A stretch of 64,000 nucleotides of DNA from an uncultured Rikenellaceae bacterium (GTDB lineage: Bacteria; Bacteroidota; Bacteroidia; Bacteroidales; VadinHA17): assembly GCA_964514725.1 (NCBI GenBank), contig CAZEUL010000005.1, forward strand, positions 129,479 to 193,478. Reading direction: 5' to 3'. The notes under the pieces were generated by a model. The model searched no databases, was not told the origin of the DNA, and was given only the letters and a program-made list of their open reading frames with translations. Position 1 is the stretch's first letter; each line of letters opens with the position of its first letter. This document shows, piece by piece, positions 13,421-61,364 of this stretch. Made by a program: the position numbers and the translations under genes.

Positions 13421-13434
13421 TCAGTTTTATATTG

Positions 13435-44584: not shown

Positions 44585-45334
44585 ATGAAAATTCTGGTTT
44601 GCATAAGTAATGTGCCTGATACAACGACTAAAATAAAATTCACTGGAGACAATAAAAGCCTTGATACCACTGGCATTCAATGGGTGATCAATCCATGGGA
44701 TGAACTGTCTCTTACGCGGGCCCTGGAACTTAAAGATGATCTTACTACCGGAGTAAAATCAGTTACAGTCGGTCATGTAGGATTAATCGGTTCGGAACCA
44801 ACAATAAGGAAGGCGCTCGCAATAGGTGCCGATGATGCATTCAGGGTCAATGCAGAACCTGTTGATGCTTATTTTGTGGCGGGCCAGATTGCAGAGGTAG
44901 TAAAGAAGGAGCAGTTCGATATAATTATGTGCGGTATTGAATCGAGTGATTTCAATGGTTCTGTTGTCGGCGGGATGATCTCTGAATTTCTCGGCGTCCC
45001 CTCTATTTCTTCAGTTTCGGCAATAAAAATTGAAAACGGTAAACCTGTTATTACAAGGGAAATTGACGGAGGGAAAGAAACAGTTCTCACTGAGGTTCCC
45101 TTTGTTGCAGTTGTTCAGAAAGGTATTGCAAAAGAACCCAGAATTGCCGCAATGAGAGGAATTATGGCTGCAAGAACAAAGCCCATAAGGATCTACGAAC
45201 CTGCAGCTTTTGAAATGCTTACCGAAGTCACTGGTTTTGAAAAACCAAAACAGCGCGCCGCCTGCAAATTCGTTGATCCAGAAAATCCCGCTTCTCTTAT
45301 TGATCTTCTACAGAATGAAGCAAAAGTAATTTAA
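44585..45334 (+). CDS. etfB: Electron transfer flavoprotein beta subunit
   Basis: The N-terminus is MKILVCISNVPDTTTKIKF. The length is ~250 aa and the gene lies directly upstream of etfA. Confidence 0.9.
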   Translation: MKILVCISNVPDTTTKIKFTGDNKSLDTTGIQWVINPWDELSLTRALELKDDLTTGVKSVTVGHVGLIGSEPTIRKALAIGADDAFRVNAEPVDAYFVAGQIAEVVKKEQFDIIMCGIESSDFNGSVVGGMISEFLGVPSISSVSAIKIENGKPVITREIDGGKETVLTEVPFVAVVQKGIAKEPRIAAMRGIMAARTKPIRIYEPAAFEMLTEVTGFEKPKQRAACKFVDPENPASLIDLLQNEAKVI

Positions 45335-45361
45335 AGTCAGAAACGAAATTTTTAATTGAAT

Positions 45362-46330: not shown

Positions 46331-46562
46331 ATGATTAATTTCTCATTTTCCTTTCTATTGATGAGAACAAAATTCACTTATTTGATTTCAAGGGTAAAAA
46401 GTTTTAATCATGAAAAACAATCATGAAAAAAGATCTCAGTGTCCTTAATGAAAATTCTTTACAACTTTTGCGGTTAAATGATATAATTCTTTTTTTACCT
46501 CAGTTTAAGCTTTATTTAAAGATTGACTTAACTTCTACTGCAAAACAGACAATATCATACAA

Positions 46563-48665
46563 ATGATCAGACAAACAATATTTGCCATTGCCCTTTTAAT
46601 AACCCTGGGACTCTTTTTTTACACAATAAGACGTCTTATCAGGTTCTTCGGTTTTACCAGGCCTGCTTTTACTGTAAAGGATTATGGGAAACGATTTAAT
46701 ATTATGATGAAAGTGGCTTTGGGCCAGACAAAGATTTTCCGGAAACCTGTATTGGGCTTTTTTCATGCTTTGGTATTCTGGGGCTTTTGCGTAATACTTT
46801 TCGGCAGTATTGAAATGGTTATTGATGGCCTGGCAGGCACAAATCGGGCATTGAAATTTCTGGGGCCGGTTTATGATTTTTTAATGGCAACAGGTGACAT
46901 ATTCGCATTACTGGTTGCAATATCCATAATTGTTTTTCTCATCCGCCGGCTTTTTTTTCATATAAAGAGATTTGAAGGACCTGAGATGAAAAAAAAATCA
47001 CATCTCGATGCTAATGTCGCTCTTACCCTTATTCTTCTGCTGATGATCTCCCTTCTCACAATGAATACAGGGTATCTGGGCTACAACTTTTCATCAGGCG
47101 GTGAGGTTTACGGATCATTTCCTGTAAGTATTCTGCTGATGGATCTTTTTGACGGGTTTTCAAGGGAAGATTTTAGTTTAATGCACGAGATTTCATGGTG
47201 GACCCACATACTTCTCATTTTCTTTTTTGCCAACTATCTGCCTTACTCCAAGCATTTTCATGTTTTCATGTCTGTTCCTAATGTTTTTTTGTCACGGCTT
47301 GAGCCTCTGGGCAAACTTACAAATATGGACAACATAACCAGGGAAGTGAAACTGATGTTGAATCCCGATACAACTTTTTCGGCTGTATCGTCTGATTCTC
47401 CAGCAGAAAGATTTGGAATAAAGGATGCTGAAGATGCGACCTGGAAAAATTATTTTGATTCATTATCATGCACTGAGTGTGGAAGATGTACATCTGTTTG
47501 TCCGGCCAACCTTACAGGTAAAAAATTATCGCCGCGAAAAATAATGATGGACCTTCGGGCAAGAATGAAAGAAAAAGGTCCGGGAATGATAGCAAAAGGA
47601 AAGGATTTTAATGATAATCGCTCTCTTCTACGCAGCTATATTTCCGAAGAAGAATTATGGGCATGTACAACCTGCAATGCCTGCTCAAAGGAGTGTCCCA
47701 TCAACATCAACCAGCCGTCCTTAATTGTGGATATGCGGCGCTATTTGGTACTTGAGGAGGCATCTGCACCGGGAGAGCTTAAAAGCATGTTCAGCTATAT
47801 TGAAAACAACGGGGCTCCTTGGCAGTATTCTCCTGAAGACAGACTTAACTGGACCAGAGATCTTAACTTCAAAATCCCAATACTTTCTGAAATGGCCTCC
47901 AGAGGGGAAAAACCAGAATATCTATTCTGGGTAGGATGTGCCGGTGCTTATGATGACAGATATAAGAAGGTAGTCAGATCCTTTGCAAGTATTTTGAATC
48001 ATATTGGAATAAACTATGCTGTCCTGGGAAATGAGGAAACATGTACAGGAGATCCGGCAAGAAGAGCCGGAAATGAACTTCTTTACCAGATGCAGGCTTT
48101 TCAGGTAATAGATATCTTTAACAGATATGGTGTTAGAAAAATCATAACCACCTGCCCACATTGCTTTAATATTTTCAAAAATGAATACCCTGATCTTGGA
48201 GGCAATTTTGAGATTATCAATTATTTACAATTTCTCGATAATAAACATAAAGAAGGGGTATTGGATTTCTCCGTAGAAGCTTTGAAAGACGTAAAGATTA
48301 CCTATCATGATCCCTGTTATCTTGGAAGGGCAAATGACATTTATTCAGAACCCCGGACTCTTTTAAAAGCTGTTTCCGGAAAATATACAGAAATGAAAAG
48401 GCATAAAAGCTTTGCATTATGCTGCGGTGCAGGGGGATCTCAGATGTTCAAAGAAGCTGAAAAAGGAACCAGGGAGATTTTTATTGAAAGAACTGAAGAA
48501 GCCCTGGCAACAGAAGCCAAAATAATTGTAACAGCATGCCCTTTCTGTATGACAATGCTTACCGACGGACTTAAATACAAAAACAAAGAGGAAGAAATTA
48601 AAAATCTCGACATTGCCGAATTAATAGCATTATCACTTGAGAACCGGGAAAAAACAATCTCATAA
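46563..48665 (+). CDS. Membrane-anchored (Fe-S)-binding oxidoreductase with two CCG domains (HdrD/DsrK/GlpC-like; EtfD-like)
   Basis: The N-terminus has ~6 TM helices. There are two ferredoxin-type clusters (CTECGRCTSVCP, CTTCNACSKECP) and CCG-type cysteine motifs (CPHCFN, CCGAGG, ACPFC). Confidence 0.75.
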   Translation: MIRQTIFAIALLITLGLFFYTIRRLIRFFGFTRPAFTVKDYGKRFNIMMKVALGQTKIFRKPVLGFFHALVFWGFCVILFGSIEMVIDGLAGTNRALKFLGPVYDFLMATGDIFALLVAISIIVFLIRRLFFHIKRFEGPEMKKKSHLDANVALTLILLLMISLLTMNTGYLGYNFSSGGEVYGSFPVSILLMDLFDGFSREDFSLMHEISWWTHILLIFFFANYLPYSKHFHVFMSVPNVFLSRLEPLGKLTNMDNITREVKLMLNPDTTFSAVSSDSPAERFGIKDAEDATWKNYFDSLSCTECGRCTSVCPANLTGKKLSPRKIMMDLRARMKEKGPGMIAKGKDFNDNRSLLRSYISEEELWACTTCNACSKECPININQPSLIVDMRRYLVLEEASAPGELKSMFSYIENNGAPWQYSPEDRLNWTRDLNFKIPILSEMASRGEKPEYLFWVGCAGAYDDRYKKVVRSFASILNHIGINYAVLGNEETCTGDPARRAGNELLYQMQAFQVIDIFNRYGVRKIITTCPHCFNIFKNEYPDLGGNFEIINYLQFLDNKHKEGVLDFSVEALKDVKITYHDPCYLGRANDIYSEPRTLLKAVSGKYTEMKRHKSFALCCGAGGSQMFKEAEKGTREIFIERTEEALATEAKIIVTACPFCMTMLTDGLKYKNKEEEIKNLDIAELIALSLENREKTIS

Positions 48666-48675
48666 AAAATTAACT

Positions 48676-50454
48676 ATGGAAATCAGAAAAATTTTGAAAA
48701 GCGGAGAATTTCTTATAAGGGAAGTTGACTGCAAAGATGTATTCATACCGGAAGAATTCAGCGAAGAACAAAATATGATTGCCCAGACATGTAAGGATTT
48801 TCTTGAATCAGAGGTATATCCGAATTTGCAGGCAGTTGAAAAAGGCGACAGGGCCCTTATGAAGAGCATGTTAAAAAAATCGGGTGAACTTGGGCTCATG
48901 GGTATTTCAATTCCGGAAGAGTACGGTGGATTTGGACAGTCATTTGTCACCCAGATGCTTGTCGCCGAGACCACAGGAGCCGGATATTCATTCTCCGTCG
49001 CATATATGGCCCATTGCGGGATCGGAACACTTCCTATCATGTATTACGGGAACGAGGATCAACGACAAAGATATGTTACAAAACTTGCAACAGGCGAACT
49101 TCTGGGAGCTTATTGTCTTACCGAACCCGGCGCAGGAAGCGATGCTAATTCCGGAAAAACCTCTGCTAAACTCTCTTTAGATGGAAAATACTATATAATC
49201 AATGGCCAGAAAATGTGGATAACCAATGCCGGATTTGCTGATACCCTTGTCGTCTTTGCAAAAATTGATAATGACCGGGTATTGAGCGCTTTTATCGTTG
49301 AAACAGGCTATCCTGGAGTTGTAATTGGTCCTGATGAACATAAAATGGGAATAAAAGGATCATCAACTGCCCAGATTTATTTTAACGATGTAAAGGTACC
49401 TGTAGAAAACCTGCTGGGTAAAAGAGGCGAAGGATTCAGAATTGCACTCAGCATCCTTCATATGGGACGACTTAAACTTGGGGCCAATGTACTGGGTGCA
49501 GCAAAAAAAGCAATTACTGATTCAGTTAAATACGCGAACGAAAGAAAACAGTTTGGAGTCTTAATTTCAACATTCGGAGCAATAAAATATAAACTTGCAC
49601 AACAGGTCATAAGGCTTTTTGCATCAGAGTCGGCAGTATACAGAGTAAGTAAGGATATTGATGATCTTATGGACAGACTCAAATCTGAATGCGGTGATAA
49701 AGGCAGAGCAACTATAGAAGCCATAAGCCATTATGCCGTCGAAGCTGCGCTTTTGAAAGTTATTGGCTCGGAAATGCTCGATTATGTCGCGGATGAGGCC
49801 GTTCAGATCCATGGCGGAATGGGATATTCTTCTGAAATGGATGTGGAAAGAGGTTATCGTGATTCACGTATCAACAGAATTTTTGAAGGTACAAACGAAA
49901 TAAACCGGCTTCTGGTCTCAGATACTGTAATGAAAAGAGCAATGAAAGGTGACTTTGACCTTTTCGGTGAAGCTGAGAAACTTTTCGGAATCCTTGACAA
50001 TATTGAAGATGCCGGAAATAAAAATGAGAGTTATTTCCAGGAAAAATACAGATATATTAAAAACTTCAAGAAAATCATTCTGCTCTGTATGCATGCAGCG
50101 GTTAAACAATTCGATAAGAATCTGGTCAATGAACAGGAGGTCATGAATAATATTGCTGAAATGATTATGGAAACCTATCTGTCAGAATCACTTGCATTAC
50201 GAATTGAAAAGATTGAAATGATTAAAGGTTTTGTAACTGAATACAGAGATATACTTGACGTTAACATATATGACACTTCTGAAATAATCAGAAAATCAGC
50301 CCTCGATGCTGTTTATTCCACAGACTTTGAAAATAATACCGAAAAAATGGTAAGAGCAATTGAAATGCTTTCAAAAATCCGAGGAGTTAATGTTAAAAAT
50401 GCCAGAAGACGTATTGCTGATAAACTTATTGCAGATAACCATTATAAATTCTGA
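48676..50454 (+). CDS. Acyl-CoA dehydrogenase, long (VLCAD/ACAD9-like) form with an extra C-terminal domain
   Basis: The likely start is ATG 48676 (MEIRKIL). Motifs GAYCLTEPGAGSDA and YRDSRINRIFEGTNEINR are present, followed by ~180 extra C-terminal residues. Confidence 0.85.
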   Translation: MEIRKILKSGEFLIREVDCKDVFIPEEFSEEQNMIAQTCKDFLESEVYPNLQAVEKGDRALMKSMLKKSGELGLMGISIPEEYGGFGQSFVTQMLVAETTGAGYSFSVAYMAHCGIGTLPIMYYGNEDQRQRYVTKLATGELLGAYCLTEPGAGSDANSGKTSAKLSLDGKYYIINGQKMWITNAGFADTLVVFAKIDNDRVLSAFIVETGYPGVVIGPDEHKMGIKGSSTAQIYFNDVKVPVENLLGKRGEGFRIALSILHMGRLKLGANVLGAAKKAITDSVKYANERKQFGVLISTFGAIKYKLAQQVIRLFASESAVYRVSKDIDDLMDRLKSECGDKGRATIEAISHYAVEAALLKVIGSEMLDYVADEAVQIHGGMGYSSEMDVERGYRDSRINRIFEGTNEINRLLVSDTVMKRAMKGDFDLFGEAEKLFGILDNIEDAGNKNESYFQEKYRYIKNFKKIILLCMHAAVKQFDKNLVNEQEVMNNIAEMIMETYLSESLALRIEKIEMIKGFVTEYRDILDVNIYDTSEIIRKSALDAVYSTDFENNTEKMVRAIEMLSKIRGVNVKNARRRIADKLIADNHYKF

Positions 50455-50709: not shown

Positions 50710-51087
50710 ATGAAAATAATAGCTAACAAATCACACCTTTTCTTGGTGACAATGATTATGCTGTTTGCTGCATTAGTGTTAGGATCATGCGAGAAATATA
50801 CTTATCAGGTGGAAGTTGTTGATCCCGGAGTCCCTGTCCTTTTTCAGACTCAGATTCAACCTATTTTTAATAATAACTGTATTGCATGTCATAAAGGTAC
50901 AAGAAATCCTGATTTAAGAGATGGGAATTCATATACCTCACTTACTACCGGCGGCTATGTAAATCTTCCGGCAGAATCAAGCAAACTTTACAGGCAGGTT
51001 ATTTCAGCCAGCCATGCCCCGTTTACACTTGATTCGGAGAAGCAGTTGATCCTAATGTGGATAAGTCAGGGGGCCAAGAATAATTAA
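50710..51087 (+). CDS. Monohaem c-type cytochrome lipoprotein (PSCyt1-like haem domain)
   Basis: It has a lipobox (LVLGSC) and a single CXXCH in the context IQPIFNNNCIACHKG. Confidence 0.65.
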   Translation: MKIIANKSHLFLVTMIMLFAALVLGSCEKYTYQVEVVDPGVPVLFQTQIQPIFNNNCIACHKGTRNPDLRDGNSYTSLTTGGYVNLPAESSKLYRQVISASHAPFTLDSEKQLILMWISQGAKNN

Positions 51088-51118
51088 GTGATTTTGTAAC
51101 CTAATAAACCAGAATAAA

Positions 51119-51982
51119 ATGAAAAAAACTTTGTTGTTTTTGTTTATATCCGCCCTAATGGTTTCATTGACAGCCCAGGAAGGGGATCAAACCAAAGAAA
51201 AATCTAAACCGGTCAGATTCACCTTTGGAACAGGGATACTTATTGATAATCAGACTGTAGAAACAACCTTCAAGGGAAGCCTTGAATTACAGATCCATCA
51301 CCGGTTCAGTCTCATTGAAAACTATCATAATCTATTTGGAATCTATGGAGCCGCAAATACACGACTTGGTTTGAATTATGGTGTAACTGACAGACTTATG
51401 ATAGGCGTCGGAACCACTAAGGATTATAAACTCCAGGATATCCAGTGGAAGTATCAGATACTGAGGCAGACAGAGGATAACAGCATTCCTTTATCACTTT
51501 CATATTATGGGAATTTCGTTATTGATCTCAGGAAAAAGGAAGCATTCGGACCGGTAGACAGATACAGAGATATTCACAGATTATCTTATTTTACCCAGCT
51601 TATTGCTGCCAGGAAATTCAATGATATCTTATCACTCCAGCTGGCACCGTCAGTTATTTATTTTAATGCTGTGCCGCAATATACAAATGACTCAAAATAT
51701 AAGAACCTTAATTTCGGCCTGTCTGCAGGTGCCAGGGCAAATGTTTCCGGGTCACACTCAATTATATTGGAATATGATCAACTGCTTACCAAACAGGACC
51801 TTGAAGAACAGCCAAAGCCAAACCTGTCCGTCGGATGGGAATTGGGAACCGCTACTCATACCTTCCAGCTGTTTGTTGCAAACTATTCCCAGGTTATTTA
51901 TCAGCGCAACCTGGTATTTAATACAAACGATTTCACGAATGGTGATTATCTGATTGGCTTTAACATAACAGTCAGGTTCTAA
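51119..51982 (+). CDS. Outer-membrane beta-barrel protein (DUF5777-like)
   Basis: It has a signal peptide (MVSLTAQ) and amphipathic beta-strand patterning throughout. The C-terminus ends in an aromatic residue (NITVRF), as in OM barrels. The early HHRF motif is as I recall for DUF5777. Confidence 0.6.
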   Translation: MKKTLLFLFISALMVSLTAQEGDQTKEKSKPVRFTFGTGILIDNQTVETTFKGSLELQIHHRFSLIENYHNLFGIYGAANTRLGLNYGVTDRLMIGVGTTKDYKLQDIQWKYQILRQTEDNSIPLSLSYYGNFVIDLRKKEAFGPVDRYRDIHRLSYFTQLIAARKFNDILSLQLAPSVIYFNAVPQYTNDSKYKNLNFGLSAGARANVSGSHSIILEYDQLLTKQDLEEQPKPNLSVGWELGTATHTFQLFVANYSQVIYQRNLVFNTNDFTNGDYLIGFNITVRF

Positions 51983-51989
51983 GTTCAAT

Positions 51990-53000
51990 ATGCAAAAAGT
52001 AATTAAACCTGGTGCAGTCTGGGCATTTATTCTGATTCTAATTTCACAATCGGTAAATGGAGTATTACAGAAAGATCCAAAACAAAATGGATCGCAGCCT
52101 GAAGTAACTGATACTCTCAAATACATTTCACCATTCTTTGAAGATAATGAGCGCTGTTTGAAGTGCCATGGGCAGAGGAGATACGAATACACCAATGAGG
52201 TCCTTGGGCGTCAGGTAAAATCTTTGATGTTTTCTGAAAGGATTATCGACAGGAACAAATTTTACCAGTCGAACCACAAAAGTTTCAGTTGTACAGATTG
52301 TCATTCTAAGGGCTATCTTACCTTCCCACATCCTGGTGAATTAAGGATGGAGCAAAAATTCAATTGTATGGATTGTCATGGCGGCGATGAAAACTTTGCT
52401 CAGTACCATTTTGAAGAAATTGAATCCGAATACCAGAAAAGTGTCCATTACAAGCTTGAGGAAGAAGGTTTTACATGCTGGAAATGTCACGGCCCGCATG
52501 ACTACAGAATAAGTATCCGAAATACTTCAAATCTTAAGGAAACCATACTTTATGATAATAATATCTGTCTGAACTGTCATTCAAACTACAATCACTTTAT
52601 GCTTCTGACAGAAAGAGAAGAGATGAATATTCTGAAGAAGCACGAATGGCTGCCTAACCAGGATGCACATTTTAAAAGCGTCAGGTGTATTGAATGCCAT
52701 GCCCAAACTAACGATACATTGCTTGTAGCACATTATATTAAACCAAAATCAGAAGCTGTAAAGAAATGCAATGAATGCCACTCCCGGAATTCAATTCTGA
52801 TGTCATCCTTGTATAAATTTCAATCTAAAGAACAAAGAAAAGATGGCTTCCTTAACGGGATTATCCTTAATGAGTCTTATGTTATAGGTGCAAACAGAAA
52901 TGAATATCTTAATCTGTTAAGCATTCTAATTTTCATATTTACTTTGGTTATTATCGGAGTTCATGTTTTTTTCAGAATTATTAAAGCAAAAAAGAACTGA
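51990..53000 (+). CDS. Heptahaem c-type cytochrome with a C-terminal membrane anchor
   Basis: It has a signal peptide and seven CXXCH motifs (CLKCH, CTDCH, CMDCH, CWKCH, CLNCH, CIECH, CNECH). A C-terminal TM helix (LLSILIFIFTLVIIGVHVFF) is present. Confidence 0.8.
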   Translation: MQKVIKPGAVWAFILILISQSVNGVLQKDPKQNGSQPEVTDTLKYISPFFEDNERCLKCHGQRRYEYTNEVLGRQVKSLMFSERIIDRNKFYQSNHKSFSCTDCHSKGYLTFPHPGELRMEQKFNCMDCHGGDENFAQYHFEEIESEYQKSVHYKLEEEGFTCWKCHGPHDYRISIRNTSNLKETILYDNNICLNCHSNYNHFMLLTEREEMNILKKHEWLPNQDAHFKSVRCIECHAQTNDTLLVAHYIKPKSEAVKKCNECHSRNSILMSSLYKFQSKEQRKDGFLNGIILNESYVIGANRNEYLNLLSILIFIFTLVIIGVHVFFRIIKAKKN

Positions 53001-53632
53001 TGGTTCATAAATTATACCTGTATCCAAAATGGGTTAGATTATGGCATATTGTTAATGCCATTCTTTTCATTATACTTATTGTTACCGGCCTGAGCATGCA
53101 ATACACCGACATTCAGAATGAAAATTTTTTCGTGGTCGGATTTGCCAGAGCTGTCAAGTGGCATAATTTTGCAGCAATATTATTGACATTCAATTATGTA
53201 TTTTTTGTTACCGGAAACATTATTACTAAAAACGGCAGGCATTACAGGATCTCTAAACAAAACTTCTGGACAGACCTTTGGTTACAGCTTAAATACTATT
53301 CCAAAGGTATGTTTAAAGGAGAAAAACACCCATTTCCGGTAACCGAGATGCGAAAATTCAATCCACTCCAGAAATTTACATATATTCTGGCAATGTATCT
53401 GGCAATGCCTTTATTAATAATTTCAGGTTTGGGTTTACTGTTTCCCGAAATTACCATTAAAAGATTTTTGGGGATGAGCGGCCTGATCCTGACCGATGTG
53501 CTTCATATTACAATGGGATTTTTATTATCAATATTCATGGTGATTCATATATATACGTGTACCCTTGGATCAAAACCCTCTTCTCTGTTTAAAGGAATTT
53601 TGACCGGTTATCATGAATCAGAAGAACATTAA
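53000..53632 (+). CDS. Membrane b-type cytochrome (PhsC/FdnI/HydC-like, cytochrome b561 family)
   Basis: The start overlaps the upstream stop as TGATG. The N-terminal WVRLWHIVNAILF signature is present, with four TM helices carrying His residues (WH, KWHN, VLHIT, MVIHIY). Confidence 0.7.
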   Translation: MVHKLYLYPKWVRLWHIVNAILFIILIVTGLSMQYTDIQNENFFVVGFARAVKWHNFAAILLTFNYVFFVTGNIITKNGRHYRISKQNFWTDLWLQLKYYSKGMFKGEKHPFPVTEMRKFNPLQKFTYILAMYLAMPLLIISGLGLLFPEITIKRFLGMSGLILTDVLHITMGFLLSIFMVIHIYTCTLGSKPSSLFKGILTGYHESEEH

Positions 53633-53697
53633 TCTTTTGACATCTCATAAAATTGCACGATTATTGTATCAAATAACCAAAACTTAAAAACATAATC

Positions 53698-54111
53698 ATG
53701 AAAACTATTAAGAAAACTTTGATTTATTCAGTAATGTTAATTGCCGTCATTTCATTTTTTTGTTTTACCGTAACTGCTCAACAACCCAAACCCTGGGATG
53801 TTCCTGCTGAATATAAAGACATGAAAAATCCTGTTGCAAAGGGCGATGAAAGTAACAAAGCAGGTTTGGCCCTCTATACTAAATATTGTGCATCATGCCA
53901 TGGCAAGACCGGTTTGGGTGATGGGGTAAAAGCAAGGATGCTTAAAGATTTCCCCGGGGATTTTTCAAAGGATTATTACCAAAACCAGACTGACGGAGAA
54001 CATTTTTATAAAACCAAATTTGGCAGGAATGATATGCCAAAATATGAAGGTAAGTTGAGTGACGAAAATATATGGAATATTGTAAACTATATGAGGACAT
54101 TTAAAAAATAG
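53698..54111 (+). CDS. Class I monohaem c-type cytochrome, periplasmic
   Basis: It has a signal peptide, CASCHG, and a distal Met candidate in GRNDMPKY. Confidence 0.75.
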   Translation: MKTIKKTLIYSVMLIAVISFFCFTVTAQQPKPWDVPAEYKDMKNPVAKGDESNKAGLALYTKYCASCHGKTGLGDGVKARMLKDFPGDFSKDYYQNQTDGEHFYKTKFGRNDMPKYEGKLSDENIWNIVNYMRTFKK

Positions 54112-54384: not shown

Positions 54385-55884
54385 ATGGAATTTAGATCTT
54401 TGGGAAGGAACTGGATAACCATTATTGGTACGTTGATCGCAGCAGTTAATCTGGTACTGATAATAGCTTTGTTCATTATATCAACACTGTTTGATAAAAG
54501 TTCCACCTACCTTGGTTTATTCATTTATATAATCCTTCCCGGTTTCATGCTGCTTGGATTAATAATGATTCCTGTAGGAATATTGATCTCCAGAAAAAAG
54601 GTAATATTATCTTCTCCTGAAGGTAAGAAGAGACTTCCTAATATTGATCTGAATAATCCTGCCCATAAAAAAGCTTTCATTGTTTTTTCAGTGGCAACAG
54701 TTATTATTCTTTTTCTTTCAACCTATGGAAGTTTTGAAGCTTATCATCTGACGGAATCGGTTGAATTCTGCGGAACTCTTTGCCACAAGGTTATGGAACC
54801 TGAATATACTGCGTATCAAAATTCTCCTCATGCCAATGTAGCGTGTGTTGACTGCCATGTTGGTTCCGGGGCCTCGTGGTATGTCAAATCCAAATTGTCA
54901 GGTTTGTACCAGGTGTACGCCACCATTACCAAAACCTATAAGGCACCTATTGAAACACCACTGCATGACCTGCGTCCCGCCAGGGAAACCTGCGAACGAT
55001 GCCACTGGCCTCAGAAATTTTACTCAAGAAAGATCTATACCGGCAAATACTTCCTGGCCGATTCGCTGAATTCTGAATGGGATATTATACTCCAGATGAA
55101 AACGGGTCCTGAATATGAAAATCTGGGTTTTACAGAAGGGATACACTGGCATATTAATCCTGATGTTAAAATTGAATATAAATCAGAAAATGACAAAAGG
55201 GAGATAATAAATTATGTAAAATACACTGATAAAGGAACTGGTGAGGAAATAGTTTACAAAAATTCTAATCTTGAAATATCTGACAGTGCTCTGGCAGCTG
55301 CTTCTGCCAGAACAATGGATTGCATAGATTGCCATAACAGGCCATCTCATAATTATAGTTCACCTCCGGTATATTTCGACCGGATTATGCTGACAGGTGG
55401 TGTATCTAAGGAGATCCCGTTCATTAAAAAAACATCTATGGGAATTCTGGCTGACACTTTCACTGATAAGGACACAGCAATGATGCAGATAAGAGATGGA
55501 ATCCTTAATTTCTATAAGTCAGATTTTGCAAACTTCTATTCATATAATAATGATAAAATTGAAAAATCAATTATTGCCGTTCAAAAAGCATTTTCGCAGA
55601 ATACTTTTCCTGCAATGGGGGTTAATTATAGCGTTTATCCGGATCATATAGGGCATCTCGAATCTGAGGGTTGTTTCAGGTGCCATAATGATACCTTTGT
55701 ATCTGAAACAGGGCGGAAAATCACTCGTGACTGCAACATCTGTCATACAATTGTGGGACAAGGCAGGCCGGGTTCAATGCAATTTTCCAATATCAGGGAA
55801 TCACTTGAATTTATGCACCCTGTTGATATAGGAACAGCCTGGAAAGAAGCCAACTGTTCCGATTGCCACAAGTTTCTTTACTAA
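54385..55884 (+). CDS. Inner-membrane NapC/NirT-family multihaem cytochrome (3 TM helices, 7 haem motifs; ImcH-like architecture)
   Basis: It has three N-terminal TM helices. The NapC/NirT signature is FCGTLCHKVMEPEYTAYQNSPHANVACVDCH. There are six CXXCH motifs (CVDCH, CERCH, CIDCH, CFRCH, CNICH, CSDCH) plus one CX3CH (CGTLCH, nt 54769-54786). Confidence 0.75.
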   Translation: MEFRSLGRNWITIIGTLIAAVNLVLIIALFIISTLFDKSSTYLGLFIYIILPGFMLLGLIMIPVGILISRKKVILSSPEGKKRLPNIDLNNPAHKKAFIVFSVATVIILFLSTYGSFEAYHLTESVEFCGTLCHKVMEPEYTAYQNSPHANVACVDCHVGSGASWYVKSKLSGLYQVYATITKTYKAPIETPLHDLRPARETCERCHWPQKFYSRKIYTGKYFLADSLNSEWDIILQMKTGPEYENLGFTEGIHWHINPDVKIEYKSENDKREIINYVKYTDKGTGEEIVYKNSNLEISDSALAAASARTMDCIDCHNRPSHNYSSPPVYFDRIMLTGGVSKEIPFIKKTSMGILADTFTDKDTAMMQIRDGILNFYKSDFANFYSYNNDKIEKSIIAVQKAFSQNTFPAMGVNYSVYPDHIGHLESEGCFRCHNDTFVSETGRKITRDCNICHTIVGQGRPGSMQFSNIRESLEFMHPVDIGTAWKEANCSDCHKFLY

Positions 55885-56112: not shown

Positions 56113-57339
56113 CTATATGGCAGCTAAGGTGTTTTCCAGTAGTTTTTTGGCATACTTGTAGTTATGCACGCCCTTACTCTTATCTCTCAATATAAGCTGG
56201 AAATTAATCATTGCTCCAAATTGTGCATTTGTAAGTTGGGGCATTGCAGGTAAGGTATTGTTATAAGTTTTCTGATCATTTGTCCATCCTGTAGTCGATG
56301 GTGATTTATATTTACCACCGGGGTTTGATCCCGGATCATAAATATCAAAATATCCGGTATAACCACCTGTTTCAGCATCCTTGTTCATAATGCTTGGTGT
56401 TGCAATTAAATCAAGCTTGGCTCCCAATTCGTTGAGCTTTTCTGTTATATCGTTAGCAACTCCTGTAAAAGTAGGATTTGTTTCACTCATCGATGAATGA
56501 CATCCCGTCATATTACAACCATTAAAATTACCCGCAGAAATAAATGAATGTCCTCCCGTAAATCCTGAAGGAGTTGCCATATGGCAATCCACACAGGAAG
56601 CTCCTGCCGTGTGCGGTGAATTTGAATAACCAGTTCCGAATTCAATGCCTCCGATTCCAGCAAGCATTGCACCATGCGACCCATAATGGACGCCGGTCCT
56701 GTATGAGATCGAAGATAATGTATAAGTTGCAGTAGGTTCGGATACGAGTTTTGAGTAGTCAATCAGATTTCCTGATGCTGCAGTAATCGGCCGAGGTTGA
56801 TGACATTTTGCACATAAATTTCCTGTATTCTTGGCAAGATTAATGGTCTTGGATCCTCCCCACATAGTCATCGGAACAGCCGCAGTCGTTGTAAGTGGAA
56901 GAAACTCCGTTCCTGCATAATTTGTATGCAGTGAACTATGGCATGTAAAACAGCTGATTTCTCCGGGGAATGCCAGAACTGAAGCACTTGCCACATAATT
57001 GTTAATATACTTTGTAGGATCTGATGGATTAACCACAAAGGTTGCAGGGGTACTCTTCTTTACAACATCCAGGAAACCCTGGTGTGAATGACAGGGAGCA
57101 CAGTTATTCCTTGTTCCTTCCTCAAAAGCCTCACCAAGATAATGTAAGGAATGCTTATATTCATTTGCTTTGGCATCTACCGTTGAACTGTTATGGCATA
57201 GTTTGCAAGTCTCATTGGCATCTTTACCGTCCTTGCCATCGTTCCCATCAGCTCCGGCCGGCCCCATAGGACCTTCGCAGGCTGAAAAAAGGATTGAAGC
57301 GGCAAATAAAATACTGAATGATTTCAGAAGGTTTTTCAT
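56113..57339 (-). CDS. Multihaem c-type cytochrome lipoprotein with an N-terminal collagen-like tether
   Basis: The likely start is ATG 57339 (MKNLLKSF), and the lipobox is LFSAC. Six consecutive G-X-Y triplets (GPMGPAGADGNDGKDGKD, nt 57221-57274) follow the lipid-anchor Cys. There are five CXXCH motifs (CKLCH, CAPCH, CFTCH, CAKCH, CVDCH) plus CX4CH (CNMTGCH, nt 56497-56517). Confidence 0.75.
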   Translation of the reverse strand: MKNLLKSFSILFAASILFSACEGPMGPAGADGNDGKDGKDANETCKLCHNSSTVDAKANEYKHSLHYLGEAFEEGTRNNCAPCHSHQGFLDVVKKSTPATFVVNPSDPTKYINNYVASASVLAFPGEISCFTCHSSLHTNYAGTEFLPLTTTAAVPMTMWGGSKTINLAKNTGNLCAKCHQPRPITAASGNLIDYSKLVSEPTATYTLSSISYRTGVHYGSHGAMLAGIGGIEFGTGYSNSPHTAGASCVDCHMATPSGFTGGHSFISAGNFNGCNMTGCHSSMSETNPTFTGVANDITEKLNELGAKLDLIATPSIMNKDAETGGYTGYFDIYDPGSNPGGKYKSPSTTGWTNDQKTYNNTLPAMPQLTNAQFGAMINFQLILRDKSKGVHNYKYAKKLLENTLAAI

Positions 57340-57474
57340 AAAATGGATATTAGGTTTTTTCTTTACGCAATGTAACAATAACAAAATTTTAATTTATCAA
57401 CCGAAGCGGTGTTATTTGCAATATTTTTAATTGATAAATATTTATGTTATAATTGACAAATATTAATAAAATAG

Positions 57475-57565: not shown

Positions 57566-58261
57566 ATGTCAGAAAAGGAATCTTTAGAGACTGGTAAAAC
57601 AAATATTCCAAAGTGGAAAAACTTTCAGCACCTGTCAAAAACTGAAATGCAGCTGGTAAAAGATAATATTTTCGAAGCCTGGTTCAAAGCAGGGGAGATC
57701 ATTTTGAAGCAAGGATCACCTTCATCAAGTGTTCTGTTTCTTAATTCCGGAATTGCCAAAAGTTTTATTGAAGGGGAAAGAGGTAAAAACTTCATAATGG
57801 AGATTATTCAGCCTGGGACTCTCATGATGGGACCGGGTGCTTATGTAAACTCAAGGAATACGATCTCTGTAGCGGCAATAACTCCTGTTCATGCATCCTT
57901 CCTGGATTTTGGTATCTTCAGGCAGTTGGTTAAAACCAATAGTGCCTTTGCTGAAAGCCTTTTAGTTGATCTTTGTTCAAAATCACTTCAGTCTCATTTA
58001 AAAATAGTTAACCTTGCTCAGAAGAAAATGCCTGGACGTATTGCTGAAGCGCTTCTATATTTTGCAGATGAAGTTTATAATTCAGACGAATTTGAACTGT
58101 ATCTTACAAGGCTGGAACTGGGTGAAATGACAAATATGGCCAAAGAAAGTGTGGTAAGAATTCTTAAGGAAATGGATGAAGCCGGAGTTATAAGCGTGAA
58201 ATCTTCATTTATCAAAATTATTGATAAGGATAAATTACGTATCATATCCGAAAAAGGCTGA
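57566..58261 (+). CDS. Crp/Fnr family transcriptional regulator
   Basis: It has a cNMP-binding-like N-terminal domain and a C-terminal HTH whose recognition helix KESVVRILKEM is close to CRP RETVGRILKML. It has only one Cys, so it lacks an FNR-type Fe-S cluster. Confidence 0.85.
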   Translation: MSEKESLETGKTNIPKWKNFQHLSKTEMQLVKDNIFEAWFKAGEIILKQGSPSSSVLFLNSGIAKSFIEGERGKNFIMEIIQPGTLMMGPGAYVNSRNTISVAAITPVHASFLDFGIFRQLVKTNSAFAESLLVDLCSKSLQSHLKIVNLAQKKMPGRIAEALLYFADEVYNSDEFELYLTRLELGEMTNMAKESVVRILKEMDEAGVISVKSSFIKIIDKDKLRIISEKG

Positions 58262-58295
58262 AAAAACTGAAGCTGTTTATTCCCAAGTAAAATTG

Positions 58296-61200
58296 ATGAT
58301 GAAAATATTTAAATTCTTATTCTCTCCCGTTTTGATGGGAGTTCTTTTAATAATTTTTGCAGTTTCAATGGCTGCAGCAACTTTCATTGAAAACGATTTC
58401 GGTTCCCCCGCTGCATACAAATCAGTATATGATACAAGATGGTTTGAGTTGATATTGTTGCTGCTTGCTGTTAATCTTATCGGTCAGATGATTACCTTCA
58501 AACTGTTCAGAAGCTCAAAACTTACAGTGTCACTTTTTCATCTGTCATTCGTGGTGATGATTATCGGAGCAGCCATTACAAGGTATTTCGGATGGGAGGG
58601 TTCAATCCATATAAGAGAAGGTGAGGAAAAGGATATCTGTTATTCATCTGACAGGTATCTGGCATTCTCACTTAAAGATGAAGCAGGTAATATAATAAGC
58701 CAGAATCAGGAAAAATTTATCGTGGGGGCCGGACATTACAGGGAAAAAATGGTGATAAATGGTAAATGGCATGAACTCATACTTTCAAAAATAATTACAA
58801 ACGCTGTAGAGGTTGTGAACGATTCACGTAACGGAGAGGCTATAGTTTCTATGATTGCAGGTTATAATGAAACTAAGGAATCCATACATCTTAAAAAGGG
58901 GGATACAACCATTATGGATGGTATTTCAATTGGTTTTTACCCTGAAACAGAAACCGACCTTAAGATAACCTCCGACTCCGTTGCATTTTATATTCAGGGA
59001 AAGATTCCTTTCACCCTTATGAATATGATGACGCAGGAAAAAACTGCGGTTGATAACGGAAAGGTGGCCGAACTGAAAGAGATGCAGATAATAACGGCAG
59101 GAAATATAAGGCTTGTCACTCAGAAGCTTACAAGGAGCGGCACCCTGAATCCGGTTTCGGCTGACAAACAGATTCAGGCGACCGGGAAAAATGTTCTGGT
59201 TTTTGATTTGTTATCGGAAGGGAAGAGTGTGGCAACAGTTAATCTCTGGGATACCGGTAAGGAAATCAGATCTTCAGGAACAGCTGAAATAGCAGGTAAG
59301 TCTCTGGAGATTACTTATGGTCCGCTTGAGAAGAAACTTAATTTTTCACTTCGGCTTAACGATTTTATCCTTGAAAGGTATCCCGGTTCCAATAGTCCGT
59401 CAGGATATAAAAGTGATGTTGTTCTTTATGACAGGACGGCAGGAGTGGAAAAACCTTTTATCATCTTTATGAACAACATCTTAAAATACAAAGGATTCAG
59501 ATTTTATCAGTCATCTTATGATCCTGATGAAAAAGGTACCGTTTTATCAGTAAATCATGATCCGGTGGGTATGAATGTAACTTATACCGGCTATTCTTTA
59601 TTATTTATTTTTATAATTCTTTCACTATTAAACAATAAATCCGTTTTTAAAAGTATAAATGCTGGTTACTGGAGTTCTTCTTTAAGAAAAAAAGTACCTT
59701 TCATACTGTTTTTTATTGTCTTTAACGGAGTTGTAAATTTAAATGCCCAAAAGCTTATACCCGATAAAAGATCAGCAGAAGAATTTGGTCAAATACTTGT
59801 TCAGGATCAAAAAGGAAGGACAAAACCTTTGTTTACACTAAGTAACGATATCCTCCGAAAGGTGGCAAGGGAAAATTCATTGGACGGACTGACTCCCATG
59901 CAGGTTTACCTGGGCGTTTACCTCGATTTTGAAAAGTGGAAAGATGTACCTCTGATAAAAATTTCCAACAGAGAGCTGCAGAGAAGGATTGGGATAAGTG
60001 GTAATATGGCAGCATTTTCAGATATAGTTGATATCAGCAGAGGAGGAATCTATAAACTTTCAGATGATGTCAACAGAGTGTATTCATTACCTCCGGGTGA
60101 ACGTAATAAGTATGACAAGGAAATAATTAAGGCTGACGAACGGATTAACATTGTTTACATGATTTATACCGGTAGGTTCCTTAAGATTTTTCCGAGGAAA
60201 GACGGGCAGCACGACTGGGAATTTCCTGAAAATGCCCTTAAAACTGCTGTTAACAAAGAGGATTCTCTATACCTTGAGAACGTCATCCCGATGTTTGCAG
60301 ATGCAATCAGGTCAAAAAACCGGTCGGTGGCGAGTACGATCTCACAATCCATTATTGATTACCAGAAGAAATTTGCACGTTACGATCTTCCTCCTGAATC
60401 AAAATCGAGGGCTGAAATAATTTATTACAAACTAATGATCTTTGAAAGGCTTTTCCCTTTTTATGCGGGAATTGGATTAGTGATGCTTATCGGACTTTTG
60501 GTTATGGTTATAAGGGGAATTAAAACCAAATCCTTTTTTGTTAAAGTTTTGGGATGGCTCCTGTTTGCCGGATTTTTACTTCATACACTTGGCCTGGGAT
60601 TACGATGGTATATATCGGGTCATTCTCCCATGAGTAATGGCTATGAATCAATGATCTTTATTTCATGGGTCACGCTTCTTGCAGGATTTATCTTTAGCAG
60701 GAAATCGGCATTTGCACTTTCAGCTACAGCTGTGCTTGCTTCAATGACACTTATGGTAGCCCATCTGAGCTTTATGGATCCTGAAATAACCAACCTTGTT
60801 CCGGTGCTGAAATCATACTGGCTTACTCTTCATGTTTCAGTGATTACCGGCAGCTATGGATTTCTTGGCCTGGGTGCGATCCTCGGCTTAATTTCAATGA
60901 TACTTATTTCCCTCTCCAGTATTAAAAACAGGGAAAGAATTTCTGTTACAATCGACGAGCTGGTTGTTATTAATTACAGAACACTAACTCTCGGGTTGTA
61001 TTTACTAACAATAGGGACCTTCCTTGGAGCTGTTTGGGCTAATGAATCGTGGGGAAGATATTGGGGCTGGGATCCTAAGGAGACTTGGTCGCTGATTACA
61101 ATTATCGTCTATACTTTTATAACGCATTCAAAGAATATCCCGGGTCTCAAAGATATCTTTTCGTTCAACCTGTTTTCTCTCTTTGGCTTCTCTTCAGTCC

Positions 61201-61364
61201 TGATGACTTATTTTGGTGTAAACTATTATTTATCGGGCTTGCATTCATACGCGGGGGGAGATTCTGTTCCGATACCCGGATTTGTTTATTTTACTGTTTT
61301 GATTCTTGTGTCTTTGTCGTTTTTAGCTTATTCCAGATACAGGAAATGGGAAAAACAGACATAG
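58296..61364 (+). CDS. ccsBA: Fused system II cytochrome c biogenesis protein CcsBA (ResB-like + CcsA haem lyase)
   Basis: The likely start is ATG 58296 (MMKIFKF), whereas the track ORF starts earlier and overlaps the regulator gene. The N-terminal part is ResB-like with a large periplasmic domain. The C-terminal part is polytopic and carries the CcsA tryptophan-rich WWD motif (WGRYWGWDPKETWS). Confidence 0.85.
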   Translation: MMKIFKFLFSPVLMGVLLIIFAVSMAAATFIENDFGSPAAYKSVYDTRWFELILLLLAVNLIGQMITFKLFRSSKLTVSLFHLSFVVMIIGAAITRYFGWEGSIHIREGEEKDICYSSDRYLAFSLKDEAGNIISQNQEKFIVGAGHYREKMVINGKWHELILSKIITNAVEVVNDSRNGEAIVSMIAGYNETKESIHLKKGDTTIMDGISIGFYPETETDLKITSDSVAFYIQGKIPFTLMNMMTQEKTAVDNGKVAELKEMQIITAGNIRLVTQKLTRSGTLNPVSADKQIQATGKNVLVFDLLSEGKSVATVNLWDTGKEIRSSGTAEIAGKSLEITYGPLEKKLNFSLRLNDFILERYPGSNSPSGYKSDVVLYDRTAGVEKPFIIFMNNILKYKGFRFYQSSYDPDEKGTVLSVNHDPVGMNVTYTGYSLLFIFIILSLLNNKSVFKSINAGYWSSSLRKKVPFILFFIVFNGVVNLNAQKLIPDKRSAEEFGQILVQDQKGRTKPLFTLSNDILRKVARENSLDGLTPMQVYLGVYLDFEKWKDVPLIKISNRELQRRIGISGNMAAFSDIVDISRGGIYKLSDDVNRVYSLPPGERNKYDKEIIKADERINIVYMIYTGRFLKIFPRKDGQHDWEFPENALKTAVNKEDSLYLENVIPMFADAIRSKNRSVASTISQSIIDYQKKFARYDLPPESKSRAEIIYYKLMIFERLFPFYAGIGLVMLIGLLVMVIRGIKTKSFFVKVLGWLLFAGFLLHTLGLGLRWYISGHSPMSNGYESMIFISWVTLLAGFIFSRKSAFALSATAVLASMTLMVAHLSFMDPEITNLVPVLKSYWLTLHVSVITGSYGFLGLGAILGLISMILISLSSIKNRERISVTIDELVVINYRTLTLGLYLLTIGTFLGAVWANESWGRYWGWDPKETWSLITIIVYTFITHSKNIPGLKDIFSFNLFSLFGFSSVLMTYFGVNYYLSGLHSYAGGDSVPIPGFVYFTVLILVSLSFLAYSRYRKWEKQT

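Follow-up and report, generated by a model that had tools for sequence, protein, structure and literature searches.

In the cycling of metals, nitrogen and sulfur, multihaem cytochromes carry electrons across the cell envelope. Those known so far owe their position to porins, to S-layer domains or to a simple lipid anchor. OcwA of Thermincola potens (6I5B) is a mixture of monomer and dimer, not a trimer; two of its haems are high-spin, and it can reduce both nitrite and hydroxylamine. PgcA is presented in its source as a triheme extracellular cytochrome built from three separate cytochrome domains. Little is understood of how uncultured Bacteroidales and Gemmatimonadota respire, or of any extracellular electron transfer that they may carry out.

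Here we describe a gene in a 64-kb stretch of DNA (the window) whose product is, by its predicted layout, a lipid-anchored hexahaem c-type cytochrome consisting of an anchor, a G-X-Y stalk and a six-haem head. We observed its sequence anatomy, conservation, homology and synteny, and we assign a probability of roughly 0.55 to the reading that this stalked, lipid-anchored hexahaem cytochrome is the distal electron-transfer partner in a respiratory module under Crp/Fnr-type regulation.

Anatomy of the cytochrome gene

Read from the ATG at 57339, the N-terminus of the target is MKNLLKSFSILFAASILFSA-C21-E-GPM-GPA-GAD-GND-GKD-GKD-ANET-C45KLCH, with one Glu standing between Cys21 and the first G-X-Y triplet. 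This start is supported by every homologue N-terminus, and the TTG at 57384, entered as an alternative in the ORF list, was rejected because those N-termini favour the ATG. C21 is the predicted lipidation site; this cysteine and the six haem motifs were invariant among 40 diverse family members. A sequence-only reading of this DNA had placed six uninterrupted G-X-Y triplets beside the lipobox Cys. The tract stood, but the coordinates given for it (57221-57274) were one base off. The same reading had counted five CXXCH motifs and one CX4CH at 56497-56517, and these proved exact when we reread the sequence. The features of the locus are collected in Table 1.

Table 1. Positions of the target gene, its sequence features and its conserved neighbors within the window
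Feature	Position	Strand	Remarks
Target cytochrome ORF	56113-57339	(-)	Signal peptide, lipobox Cys, Glu, six G-X-Y triplets, 5 CXXCH + 1 CX4CH
Signal peptide M1-A20, lipobox L-F-S-A before Cys21	57280..57339	(-)	Read from sequence
Predicted lipid-anchor cysteine C21	57277..57279	(-)	Invariant in 40/40 diverse family members
Collagen-like stalk, GPM GPA GAD GND GKD GKD, residues 23-40	57220..57273	(-)	Sequence; in-phase conservation family-wide
Haem motif 1, C45-K-L-C-H49, four residues past the stalk	57193..57207	(-)	Invariant
Haem motif 2, C80-A-P-C-H84	57088..57102	(-)	Invariant
Haem motif 3, C130-F-T-C-H134	56938..56952	(-)	Invariant; weak alignment with an OcwA CXXCH
Haem motif 4, C176-A-K-C-H180, then conserved QPRP	56800..56814	(-)	Invariant
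Haem motif 5, C249-V-D-C-H253-M	56581..56595	(-)	Aligns with CxDCHM of OcwA and G. lovleyi NrfA
Haem motif 6, C275-N-M-T-G-C-H281 (CX4CH)	56497..56517	(-)	Aligns with OcwA last CXXCH
C-terminal helical region, residues 289-408, invariant G-V-H392-N-Y	56116..56475	(-)	Predicted helices and OcwA C-terminal helix match
FNR/CRP-type palindrome TTGATATATATCAA	57475..57488	.	Divergent promoter region; perfect TTGAT-N4-ATCAA
Crp/Fnr-family regulator	57566..58261	(+)	Pfam cNMP_binding and HTH_Crp_2; divergent
Fused ResB-CcsA (CcsBA), system II cytochrome c haem lyase	58296..61364	(+)	Probable ATG ~58296
Convergent partner set	50710..54111	(+)	Conserved downstream of target, 39-58/58 loci
Monohaem lipoprotein	50710-51087	(+)	Partner set
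DUF5777 beta-barrel	51119-51982	(+)	Partner set
Heptahaem cytochrome, C-terminal TM helix	51990-53000	(+)	Partner set
Cytochrome b, Ni_hydr_CYTB family	53000-53632	(+)	Partner set
Soluble monohaem cytochrome c	53698-54111	(+)	Partner set

The G-X-Y linker is conserved in phase across a large family

The linker is the hallmark of a large uncharacterised family, with at least 610 clusters at 50% identity, in uncultured Bacteroidales and Gemmatimonadota. We found 998 family matches in a 90%-clustered database; at 50% identity there were 1309 clusters at E<=1e-3 and 610 at E<=1e-10. A genome scan with the alignment of close homologues (A1) showed that the close branch comprises only uncultured Bacteroidales MAGs, with no cultured organism, while the high-GC branch is Gemmatimonadota/Longimicrobiales, some members of which are labeled "collagen-like protein" by NCBI.

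Across the six frames of the window, the target tract was the only G-X-Y run of at least 5 triplets, and just one other run reached 4. About 115 of 120 close homologues keep the tract, as do nearly all of the distant ones. We then took stalk statistics from 227 lipoprotein members of the family. The whole linker from the anchor Cys to the first haem Cys is G-X-Y, beginning 1 or 3 residues past the one and stopping 1 or 4 residues before the other. Its length ranged from 0 to 16 triplets (at least 2 in all but two members), with a median of 6 in close homologues versus 8 in distant ones. Linker glycines were in phase in 1460 of 1473 cases (99%), Pro occupied 34-39% of X positions and Asp occupied 31-47% of Y positions. 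Tandem Repeats Finder detected no DNA tandem repeat over 57150-57340, and the periodicity is therefore kept at the protein level.

The sequence-only reading had proposed a collagen-like stalk joining the anchor to the haem domain, and the in-phase conservation across the family bears this out: the stalk is real and selected. Conservation in close homologues had been suggested as a check. There the tract was never absent and changed only by whole triplets, but its length varied from 2 to 9 triplets, an outcome that the sequence-only reading had counted as weakening its idea. The target itself does not match PF01391 (Pfam Collagen), its six-triplet tract falling below Pfam detection. The relatives P0131, P0192, P0146 and P0124 match PF01391 above threshold, a match is precomputed for many Gemmatimonadota members, and the longer members match the Pfam Collagen, SclB and Lcl models. 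The stalk had also been called unusual for a cytochrome, and our literature search on collagen with multihaem cytochromes found no relevant paper linking the two; a further search on Bacteroidales lipoprotein cytochromes returned nothing relevant.

Some relatives, including P0131 and P0192, are not lipoproteins. They carry an N-domain like that of the Bdellovibrio mosaic adhesive trimer (MAT), followed by a long collagen region and then the same cytochrome. This N-domain matched Bdello_MAT_N with an E value of 7.7e-9 and 35.6 bits, which does not reach the NCBIfam cut-off of 60.

A conserved, putatively respiratory locus with a divergent Crp/Fnr gene

The target is transcribed divergently from a Crp/Fnr-family gene. 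An FNR-type palindrome lies between them, and its center is upstream of both start codons, by about 142 nt for the target ATG and about 85 nt for that of crp. The perfect TTGAT-N4-ATCAA sequence occurs once in the window, where about 0.3 copies are expected. Since 26 of 100 shuffled windows held at least one, the single box alone is weak evidence. The perfect box was absent from the first two related loci that we inspected, but a positional analysis tolerating mismatches found a conserved degenerate box: a copy with at most 1 mismatch was present in 41 of 64 related intergenic regions, versus about 1.8 expected from shuffles, and sat about 120 nt upstream of the target-family ATG. The divergent Crp/Fnr neighbor was itself present in 65 of 82 related loci. 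Both the arrangement and the FNR-type box that had been read from this one sequence are thus conserved in related loci. The regulator has 231 residues and one Cys. With a single Cys and no N-terminal Cys cluster, it was ruled out as an O2-sensing [4Fe-4S] FNR.

Beyond the regulator lies a cytochrome c maturation gene encoding a fused ResB-CcsA, whose ORF as listed begins at TTG 58221. Among the roughly 63 loci whose flank is long enough, 60 have this gene adjacent to the target-family gene, and it is also found beside the variant P0131. On the other side of the target, the genes for cytochrome c, cytochrome b, the heptahaem cytochrome and the DUF5777 protein were convergent with it in 48 to 58 of 58 loci. 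In two of three Gemmatimonadota loci, a multihaem cytochrome gene and a Ni_hydr_CYTB gene were nearby, and one locus also had a predicted barrel (DUF3187). Genes for ETF, an EMO-like protein and acyl-CoA dehydrogenase neighbor the module. A literature search on DUF5777 found nothing relevant.

Because the target gene is monocistronic and runs convergently toward its proposed partners, it is synteny that would tie it functionally to them. From this arrangement, menaquinol would be oxidised by the adjacent cytochrome b and heptahaem pair, which is CbcL-like. The monohaem cytochrome c would then relay electrons from this pair to the stalked hexahaem cytochrome, which would hand them to an acceptor. 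The target would be the distal cytochrome of the module, accepting or donating electrons.

A trimeric stalk or a monomeric tether

We envisage the stalk as a structural spacer, most likely a short collagen triple helix bundling three lipid-anchored chains. At about 0.29 nm per residue, its 18 residues would hold the haem heads about 5 nm off the membrane, with the first haem sitting right at the tip of the stalk. From the sequence, the chains could plausibly trimerise through a collagen triple helix. The suggestion of the sequence-only reading, a protein held off the membrane or trimerised, gains indirect support from relatives that pass PF01391, and from some that have an N-domain like that of the trimeric MAT fibre. 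Six triplets lacking hydroxyproline would not by themselves be expected to form a stable triple helix, and this would count against the trimer model, as do the monomer/dimer state of OcwA, the closest solved relative, and the pLDDT of <50 for the stalk in an AF2 monomer model. Some close homologues have only 2 triplets, and a triple helix is therefore not essential in every member.

In a different proposal, the target would be a monomeric periplasmic lipoprotein and the G-X-Y tract an extended tether of polyproline-II type with tunable length, requiring neither triple helix nor surface exposure. The tether would let the hexahaem head bridge the gap from the inner-membrane quinol dehydrogenase to further partners in the periplasm. 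We consider this possible but doubtful. It agrees with the shrinkage of the tract to 2 triplets in some homologues, with the nontrimeric state of OcwA, with the missing LES surface-export motif (see below), and with the identity of the partners, which include a cytochrome c that is soluble in the periplasm and a cytochrome b and heptahaem pair of the inner membrane. Repeat linkers also occur in other electron-transfer cytochromes such as PgcA, whose three cytochrome domains are reportedly joined by Pro-Thr repeats. A monomeric spacer, however, is not known to need Gly at every third residue, and yet 99% of the 1473 linker glycines have kept their phase, although the sequences have diverged widely and no DNA repeat would account for it. 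Relatives with bona fide collagen domains and an N-domain resembling that of a trimeric fibre likewise speak against it.

Extending the trimeric stalk to the whole family, we tentatively suggest that its members might be collagen-stalked "redox fibres", each with a triple helix, three six-haem heads and either a triple lipid anchor or a MAT-like base. The heads would stand about 2 to 15 nm from the membrane, farther in the MAT-like variants, and stalk length would be an evolvable ruler.

Membrane face

Acidic residues past the anchor Cys had been likened to the Bacteroidota lipoprotein surface-export signal (LES). Published definitions of the LES (C-X-K-(D/E)2, Q-A-(D/E)2 and CS(D/E)2) call for K, Q or S and then a pair of neighboring acidic residues at about +3 to +5. 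The target reads C-E-G-P-M-G and has its first Asp at +10, and the likeness was not upheld. The family consensus past the anchor Cys is C-E-G-P or C-T-K-E-G-P. Only four other lipoprotein candidates were found in the window, none with an LES.

We nevertheless weighed the surface-exposed terminal reductase suggested by the sequence-only reading. The target would be flipped to the cell surface, its stalk projecting away from the outer membrane, and would reduce acceptors outside the cell such as Fe(III), humics or partner cells. The mismatch with the LES consensus makes this rather unlikely, as do the absence of a T9SS C-terminal domain from the target, whose C-terminus is a conserved helical bundle, and the size of the DUF5777 barrel, which at about 250 residues is presumably much smaller than known porin-cytochrome barrels. 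Several observations point the other way. The closest solved structures, OcwA and the S-layer undecahaem cytochrome 6QVM, are surface terminal reductases of Gram-positive metal reducers. MtrC and OmcA, which are surface reductases of Gram-negative bacteria, are also lipoproteins. The cluster pairs a DUF5777 beta-barrel with a CbcL-like quinol oxidase, the variants carry this cytochrome as the tip of a MAT-like surface fibre, and the neighboring ETF, EMO-like protein and acyl-CoA dehydrogenase would feed quinol from fatty-acid oxidation.

The C-terminal part of the haem domain is distantly related to the OcwA/NrfA/MccA group

The best PDB sequence match to the target was OcwA (6I5B), with an E value of 1.6e-4 from the single sequence and 1.5e-6 from a profile; Geobacter lovleyi NrfA was also found. 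Alignments to 6I5B and 6V0A span the CVDCHM motif, the last haem motif and the G-V-H-N-Y helix, so that the similarity, which takes in the final two haems and the C-terminal helices, is confined to about the C-terminal 40% of the target. The PDB profile search did not extend homology beyond this module or map haems 1 to 4 onto those of NrfA and OcwA. A haem-free AF2 model (pLDDT 76.6; >90 for the predicted helices 289-310, 371-386 and 394-407) had OcwA as its top Foldseek match (probability 1.0, E 2.8e-3, TM-score 0.39), followed by 6QVM and then NrfA, ONR and MccA. Pfam matches were marginal for PF22113 (30.9 bits versus a threshold of 30) and below threshold for Cytochrom_C552 (PF02335; 12.8 versus 24.1). 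At the sequence level, the target thus shares distant homology with the OcwA/NrfA/MccA group in this C-terminal module.

Haem site 6 is spaced as CX4CH, CX3CH or CXXCH at the same position across the family. The sequence-only reading had taken CX4CH for a haem site; because it alternates with CXXCH or CX3CH in relatives, this predicted haem-binding position is probably genuine. Five non-motif His residues (H66, H138, H218, H264 and H392) are invariant for the six haems. At position 243, 4 of 40 members have A, N, S or M instead of His. H243 aligns with the His six residues before CxDCHM in G. lovleyi NrfA, which we take to be NrfA's catalytic His.

Such a pattern could mean that one five-coordinate haem makes the target an NrfA-like enzyme, reducing nitrite, hydroxylamine, NO or a sulfur oxyanion under Dnr/NnrR-like control. 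The shortfall of invariant His residues and the variability of H243 would suit that idea, as would the reduction of nitrite and hydroxylamine by OcwA with its high-spin haems and a regulator devoid of an Fe-S Cys cluster. We find it improbable. Neither the target nor its relatives have a CXXCK motif, none of the NrfA active-site Arg/Tyr/Ca site could be aligned in the target, Pfam C552 stays below threshold, and haem ligands assigned from sequence are unreliable. Finally, a functionless origin of the G-X-Y run by chance low complexity or recent slippage, to which its shortness, variable length and low AF2 monomer confidence might point, is effectively refuted by the lack of a DNA tandem repeat and by in-phase conservation spanning two phyla, besides its being the only run of at least 5 triplets in the six frames of the window.

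Implications

If the stalked-cytochrome reading is right, a family-wide collagen stalk joining anchor and haems would be a new way to space a redox protein and possibly to set its oligomeric state. It would also be a rare bacterial collagen with a function other than in adhesins or in the fibres of spores and phages. Redox fibres, if they exist, would be a previously unrecognised device by which the FCB group (Bacteroidota and Gemmatimonadota) bridges the periplasm or gains access to extracellular acceptors. Members of the family abound in Gemmatimonadota and in uncultured Bacteroidales from soil, sediment, fen and digester. The conserved tie of the family to genes for a CbcL-like quinol oxidase and for ETF and acyl-CoA dehydrogenase offers an electron-transport pathway that is concrete and can be tested. 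Protein engineers might also find a use for short natural collagen stalks on haem heads.

Comparison with known systems

Like the target, OcwA has a CxDCHM motif, then a final haem motif and a C-terminal helix with G-V-H-N-Y, and both are multihaem proteins attached (as predicted for the target) to the cell envelope. OcwA differs in having nine haems, all CXXCH, no lipid anchor, no collagen tract and a Gram-positive host. NrfA has a CXXCK catalytic haem, unlike the target. MtrC/OmcA and cytochromes of the Geobacter OmcB type are lipoprotein multihaem cytochromes, as is predicted for the target, and belong to extracellular electron-transfer clusters; the marginal PF22113 match is a further likeness. 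MtrC and OmcA are decahaem proteins of the outer surface, with their haems in a staggered cross, beta-barrel domains and an MtrAB-type partner. The target has six haems instead of ten or twelve and a fold closer to OcwA. At the target and related loci we found no MtrA/MtrB-like neighbors and no large porin partner of the MtrAB/OmbB type.

In tetrahaem cytochrome c3 of Desulfovibrio, CX4CH serves as a covalent haem-binding site. The target family shares this spacing, which it interchanges with CXXCH and CX3CH, but the folds are unrelated, and in the target CX4CH is the last site only, within an NrfA/OcwA-like C-terminal module. The spacer of PgcA, said to be Pro-Thr, differs from the G-X-Y spacer of the target.

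Among bacterial collagens, Scl1/Scl2 of Streptococcus and Lcl of Legionella resemble the target in their uninterrupted G-X-Y repeats with Pro-rich X positions and charged residues and without hydroxyproline. The target tract has only 6 triplets, below Pfam detection; it comes after a lipoprotein Cys rather than before an LPXTG or other anchor, and it carries a redox head rather than an adhesin head. The non-lipoprotein relatives follow the logic of Bdellovibrio MAT proteins, in which an N-terminal surface anchor leads into a trimeric shaft and a variable tip: they have an N-domain, a fibrous stalk and a swappable C-terminal tip. In these relatives, whose match to the MAT N-domain is below the cut-off, the shaft is collagen and not a beta-helix and the tip is a cytochrome, whereas the target itself has a predicted lipid anchor in place of the MAT-like N-domain.

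Anatomy of a cytochrome on a collagen-like stalk

The best reading of the protein encoded by the 56113-57339 ORF is a lipid-anchored hexahaem cytochrome carried on a conserved collagen-like stalk. Translation bore out the anatomy proposed in the sequence-only reading, namely a G-X-Y tract after the lipid-anchor cysteine, five CXXCH motifs and one CX4CH motif, with an N terminus of MKNLLKSFSILFAASILFSA-C21-E-GPM-GPA-GAD-GND-GKD-GKD-ANET-C45KLCH. The coordinates proposed for the CX4CH motif were exact; the tract was present as described, one base away from its proposed position. An upstream TTG start at 57384 was rejected, as all homologues begin at the Met equivalent to the 57339 ATG. A scan of all six frames found this tract to be the sole G-X-Y run of at least five triplets in the window.

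Features of the cytochrome locus (window positions; residue numbers for the CXXCH motifs)
Feature	Position	Strand	Remarks
ETF beta and alpha, 700-residue Fer4 + CCG-domain protein, long acyl-CoA dehydrogenase	44585-50454	+	Adjoin cytochrome cluster
Monohaem lipoprotein, DUF5777 beta-barrel, heptahaem cytochrome with C-terminal TM helix, Ni_hydr_CYTB cytochrome b	50710-53632	+	Conserved four-gene set
NrfH/NapC-like membrane-anchored cytochrome	54385-55884	+	499 residues; extra C-terminal c3/c7-like domain; convergent with stalked cytochrome
Stalked cytochrome ORF	ATG 57339 to stop 56113-56115	-	408 residues, from translation
CX4CH motif (one)	56497-56517	-	C275-NMTG-C-H281, from translation
CXXCH motifs (five)	C45, C80, C130, C176, C249	-	From translation
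G-X-Y tract	57220-57273	-	Six triplets, from translation
Perfect box TTGATATATATCAA	57475-57488		
Crp/Fnr-family regulator	57566-58261	+	Crp/Fnr domains by Pfam
Fused ResB-CcsA haem lyase	58221-61364	+	Adjoins stalked cytochrome side with Crp/Fnr

The stalk is conserved throughout the family

A homologue search of 5.8 billion proteins yielded 998 relatives, the best 120 of which (the protein's own cluster excepted) were 52 to 79% identical to it. Those of the 120 with a taxon label were all Bacteroidales, one being from Tenuifilaceae; none had a functional name in database annotation, and nearly all combined lipobox-C-E-G-P-(M/A)-G-P with more G-X-Y triplets and D-A-N-E-(T/S)-C-x-x-C-H. When 1.84 billion 50%-identity representatives were searched exhaustively with a profile, 1309 clusters reached E ≤ 1e-3 and 610 reached E ≤ 1e-10, and the architecture was common to almost all full-length representatives found.

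We measured the stalk in 227 lipoprotein members. The tract had a median of 6 triplets in close homologues (range, 2 to 9) and 8 in the 50% representatives (range, 0 to 16). It was separated from the anchor Cys by 1 residue (E) or 3 (T-K-E) and from the first haem Cys by 1 or 4 residues. Pro filled 34 to 39% of X positions and Asp 31 to 47% of Y positions, and 1460 of 1473 linker glycines (99.1%) were in phase, so that the proposed stalk proved to be a family-wide trait in the homologues checked. The stalk DNA (57150-57340) contained no tandem repeat, ruling out recent slippage as the origin of the periodicity, which is therefore kept by selection at the protein level.

A collagen triple helix sterically requires strict Gly at every third residue, a point that draws on established structural knowledge and our own inference. 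In our best reading the stalk probably adopts a short triple-helical form, and we put the probability of trimerization at roughly 0.5 to 0.6. The heads would then be held about 5 nm from the membrane (18 stalk residues × ~0.29 nm). The stalk might instead be a monomeric periplasmic tether, which we regard as the less probable arrangement; simple extended linkers, to our knowledge, need no Gly at every third residue.

Some relatives resemble trimeric surface fibres

The best indirect support for trimerization, and for a head held away from the membrane, comes from relatives that place the cytochrome head in settings where a trimeric, fibrous form is expected. The Pfam Collagen gathering score was passed by the longer-stalked relatives P0192 (113.6 bits), P0131, P0146 and P0124. 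Five of the 150 best representatives (P0131, P0145, P0146, P0151 and P0192) are not lipoproteins; they have a Sec signal, an N-domain of ~140 residues, 8 to more than 50 triplets and the same hexahaem domain. Their N-domain matched NCBIfam Bdello_MAT_N (E = 7.7e-9; 35.6 bits, under the 60-bit cut-off), the model for the N-terminal domain of mosaic adhesive trimer (MAT) fibres in Bdellovibrio. MAT proteins form trimeric surface fibres with swappable C-terminal tips and an N-domain thought to lie at the cell surface (PMC10769870).

The P0131 locus (L083, 8001-9929) has an upstream neighbour with a weak T9SS Por_Secre_tail match, and a ResB-CcsA gene (11180-14332) adjoins it in an otherwise different neighbourhood. 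The high-GC branch of the family belongs to Gemmatimonadota/Longimicrobiales, and some of its members are named "collagen-like protein" at NCBI. At its loci L085 to L087, a SnoaL_3-domain gene always lies 3' of the homologue and a divergent gene of ~225 to 240 residues (GerE-type in one) precedes it, a unit unlike the Bacteroidales arrangement. A few close homologues also lie on short contigs assigned to Methylococcaceae, Bacillota, Chitinophaga or Chloroflexota MAGs (L022, L027, L035 and L040); their 58 to 64% identity to the Bacteroidales proteins suggests mis-binned contigs rather than lateral transfer.

Genomic context and regulation

Across 82 related loci, a Crp/Fnr gene was divergent from the cytochrome in 65 (median gap, 248 nt), and beyond it lay a fused ResB-CcsA gene in 60 of the ~63 with enough upstream flank. 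The convergent side, counted in the 58 loci with enough flank, held a monohaem cytochrome c (58/58), a Ni_hydr_CYTB cytochrome b (50/58), a DUF5777 beta-barrel (49/58), a heptahaem cytochrome with a C-terminal TM helix (48/58) and a small monohaem lipoprotein (39/58). Farther out were an acyl-CoA dehydrogenase (32/58) and a CCG/Fer4 protein with ETF subunits. Of three Gemmatimonadota loci, two had a multihaem cytochrome and a cytochrome b nearby, and one of these also had a DUF3187 protein. The NrfH/NapC-like gene occurred in just 14 of the 82 loci and is therefore accessory.

Menaquinol would give up electrons to cytochrome b and the heptahaem cytochrome, from which they would reach cytochrome c and finally the stalked cytochrome, which would be the distal member of a Crp/Fnr-controlled quinol-oxidizing chain. 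The adjoining ETF and acyl-CoA dehydrogenase genes, the latter recurrent in related loci, suggest that fatty-acid oxidation feeds this chain; the Fer4 + CCG-domain protein resembles the ETF:menaquinone oxidoreductase of syntrophs. In domain content the cytochrome b-multihaem pair is similar to Geobacter CbcL. The window's small lipoprotein (125 residues, CIACH, weakly matching the LIC11213 lipoprotein family) could make up, with the DUF5777 barrel, a split porin-cytochrome of Cyc2-like type; DUF5777 itself is mentioned in no searchable paper. ResB-CcsA may be reserved for this family, perhaps for its CX4CH site, like Wolinella NrfI or CcsA1, or could equally be the organism's sole haem lyase.

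About 0.3 perfect boxes are expected by chance per window, so the box alone is weak evidence. The best box in each of 64 related intergenic regions had 0 mismatches in 9, 1 in 32 and 2 in 23, versus 0.25, 1.55 and 17.75 in shuffles, nearly always ~120 to 125 nt upstream of the cytochrome ATG. The proposed divergent arrangement across the box recurs in related loci, and the box is a conserved, putative FNR/CRP-type site. The regulator has one Cys and no N-terminal Cys cluster; an FNR-type [4Fe-4S] oxygen sensor was rejected on its single Cys.

The haem domain and its known relatives

All six haem motifs and C21 were invariant in 40 of 40 diverse members, as were five non-motif histidines (H66, H138, H218, H264 and H392); H243 was kept in 36. 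Site 6 was CX4CH in 114 of 118 close homologues and, in the wider family, CXXCH in 88 members, CX4CH in ~40 and CX3CH in 2 to 4. This alternation at one alignment position points to a true haem site whose Cys spacing varies. The CX4CH spacing is known from tetrahaem cytochrome c3.

Database labels for the family are "hypothetical" or "collagen-like", and no searchable paper links collagen repeats to multihaem cytochromes. We regard these proteins as a new family of cytochromes, defined by a collagen stalk, a feature not yet described in redox proteins.

Pfam and NCBIfam gave weak generic cytochrome matches and nothing stronger. The best PDB sequence match was OcwA (6I5B; E = 1.6e-4 with the single sequence, 1.5e-6 with the profile), followed by Geobacter lovleyi NrfA; matches span CVDCHM, the last haem motif and the C-terminal G-V-H-N-Y helix. 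Alternatively, the protein may be a surface terminal reductase, a reading we consider less probable. The Bacteroidota lipoprotein export signal requires two adjacent acidic residues at ~+3 to +5, with K, Q or S before them and position critical (PMC5080379, PMC6222051). The suggested likeness to it fell away, as neither C-E-G-P-M-G nor the family consensus (C-E-G-P or C-T-K-E-G-P) reproduces that pattern, and no T9SS C-terminal domain was found in the protein. An NrfA-like enzyme is less likely still; NrfA itself was rejected, CXXCK being absent and the PF02335 score below threshold. A Foldseek search with the AF2 model (pLDDT 76.6 overall, below 50 in the stalk, above 90 in the C-terminal third) likewise ranked OcwA highest (probability 1.0; TM-score 0.39), followed by an S-layer undecahaem cytochrome and then NrfA, ONR and MccA. 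We file the stalked cytochrome as a distant relative of the OcwA/NrfA/ONR/MccA group, its closest solved match being OcwA, a terminal reductase at the cell surface of Thermincola potens.
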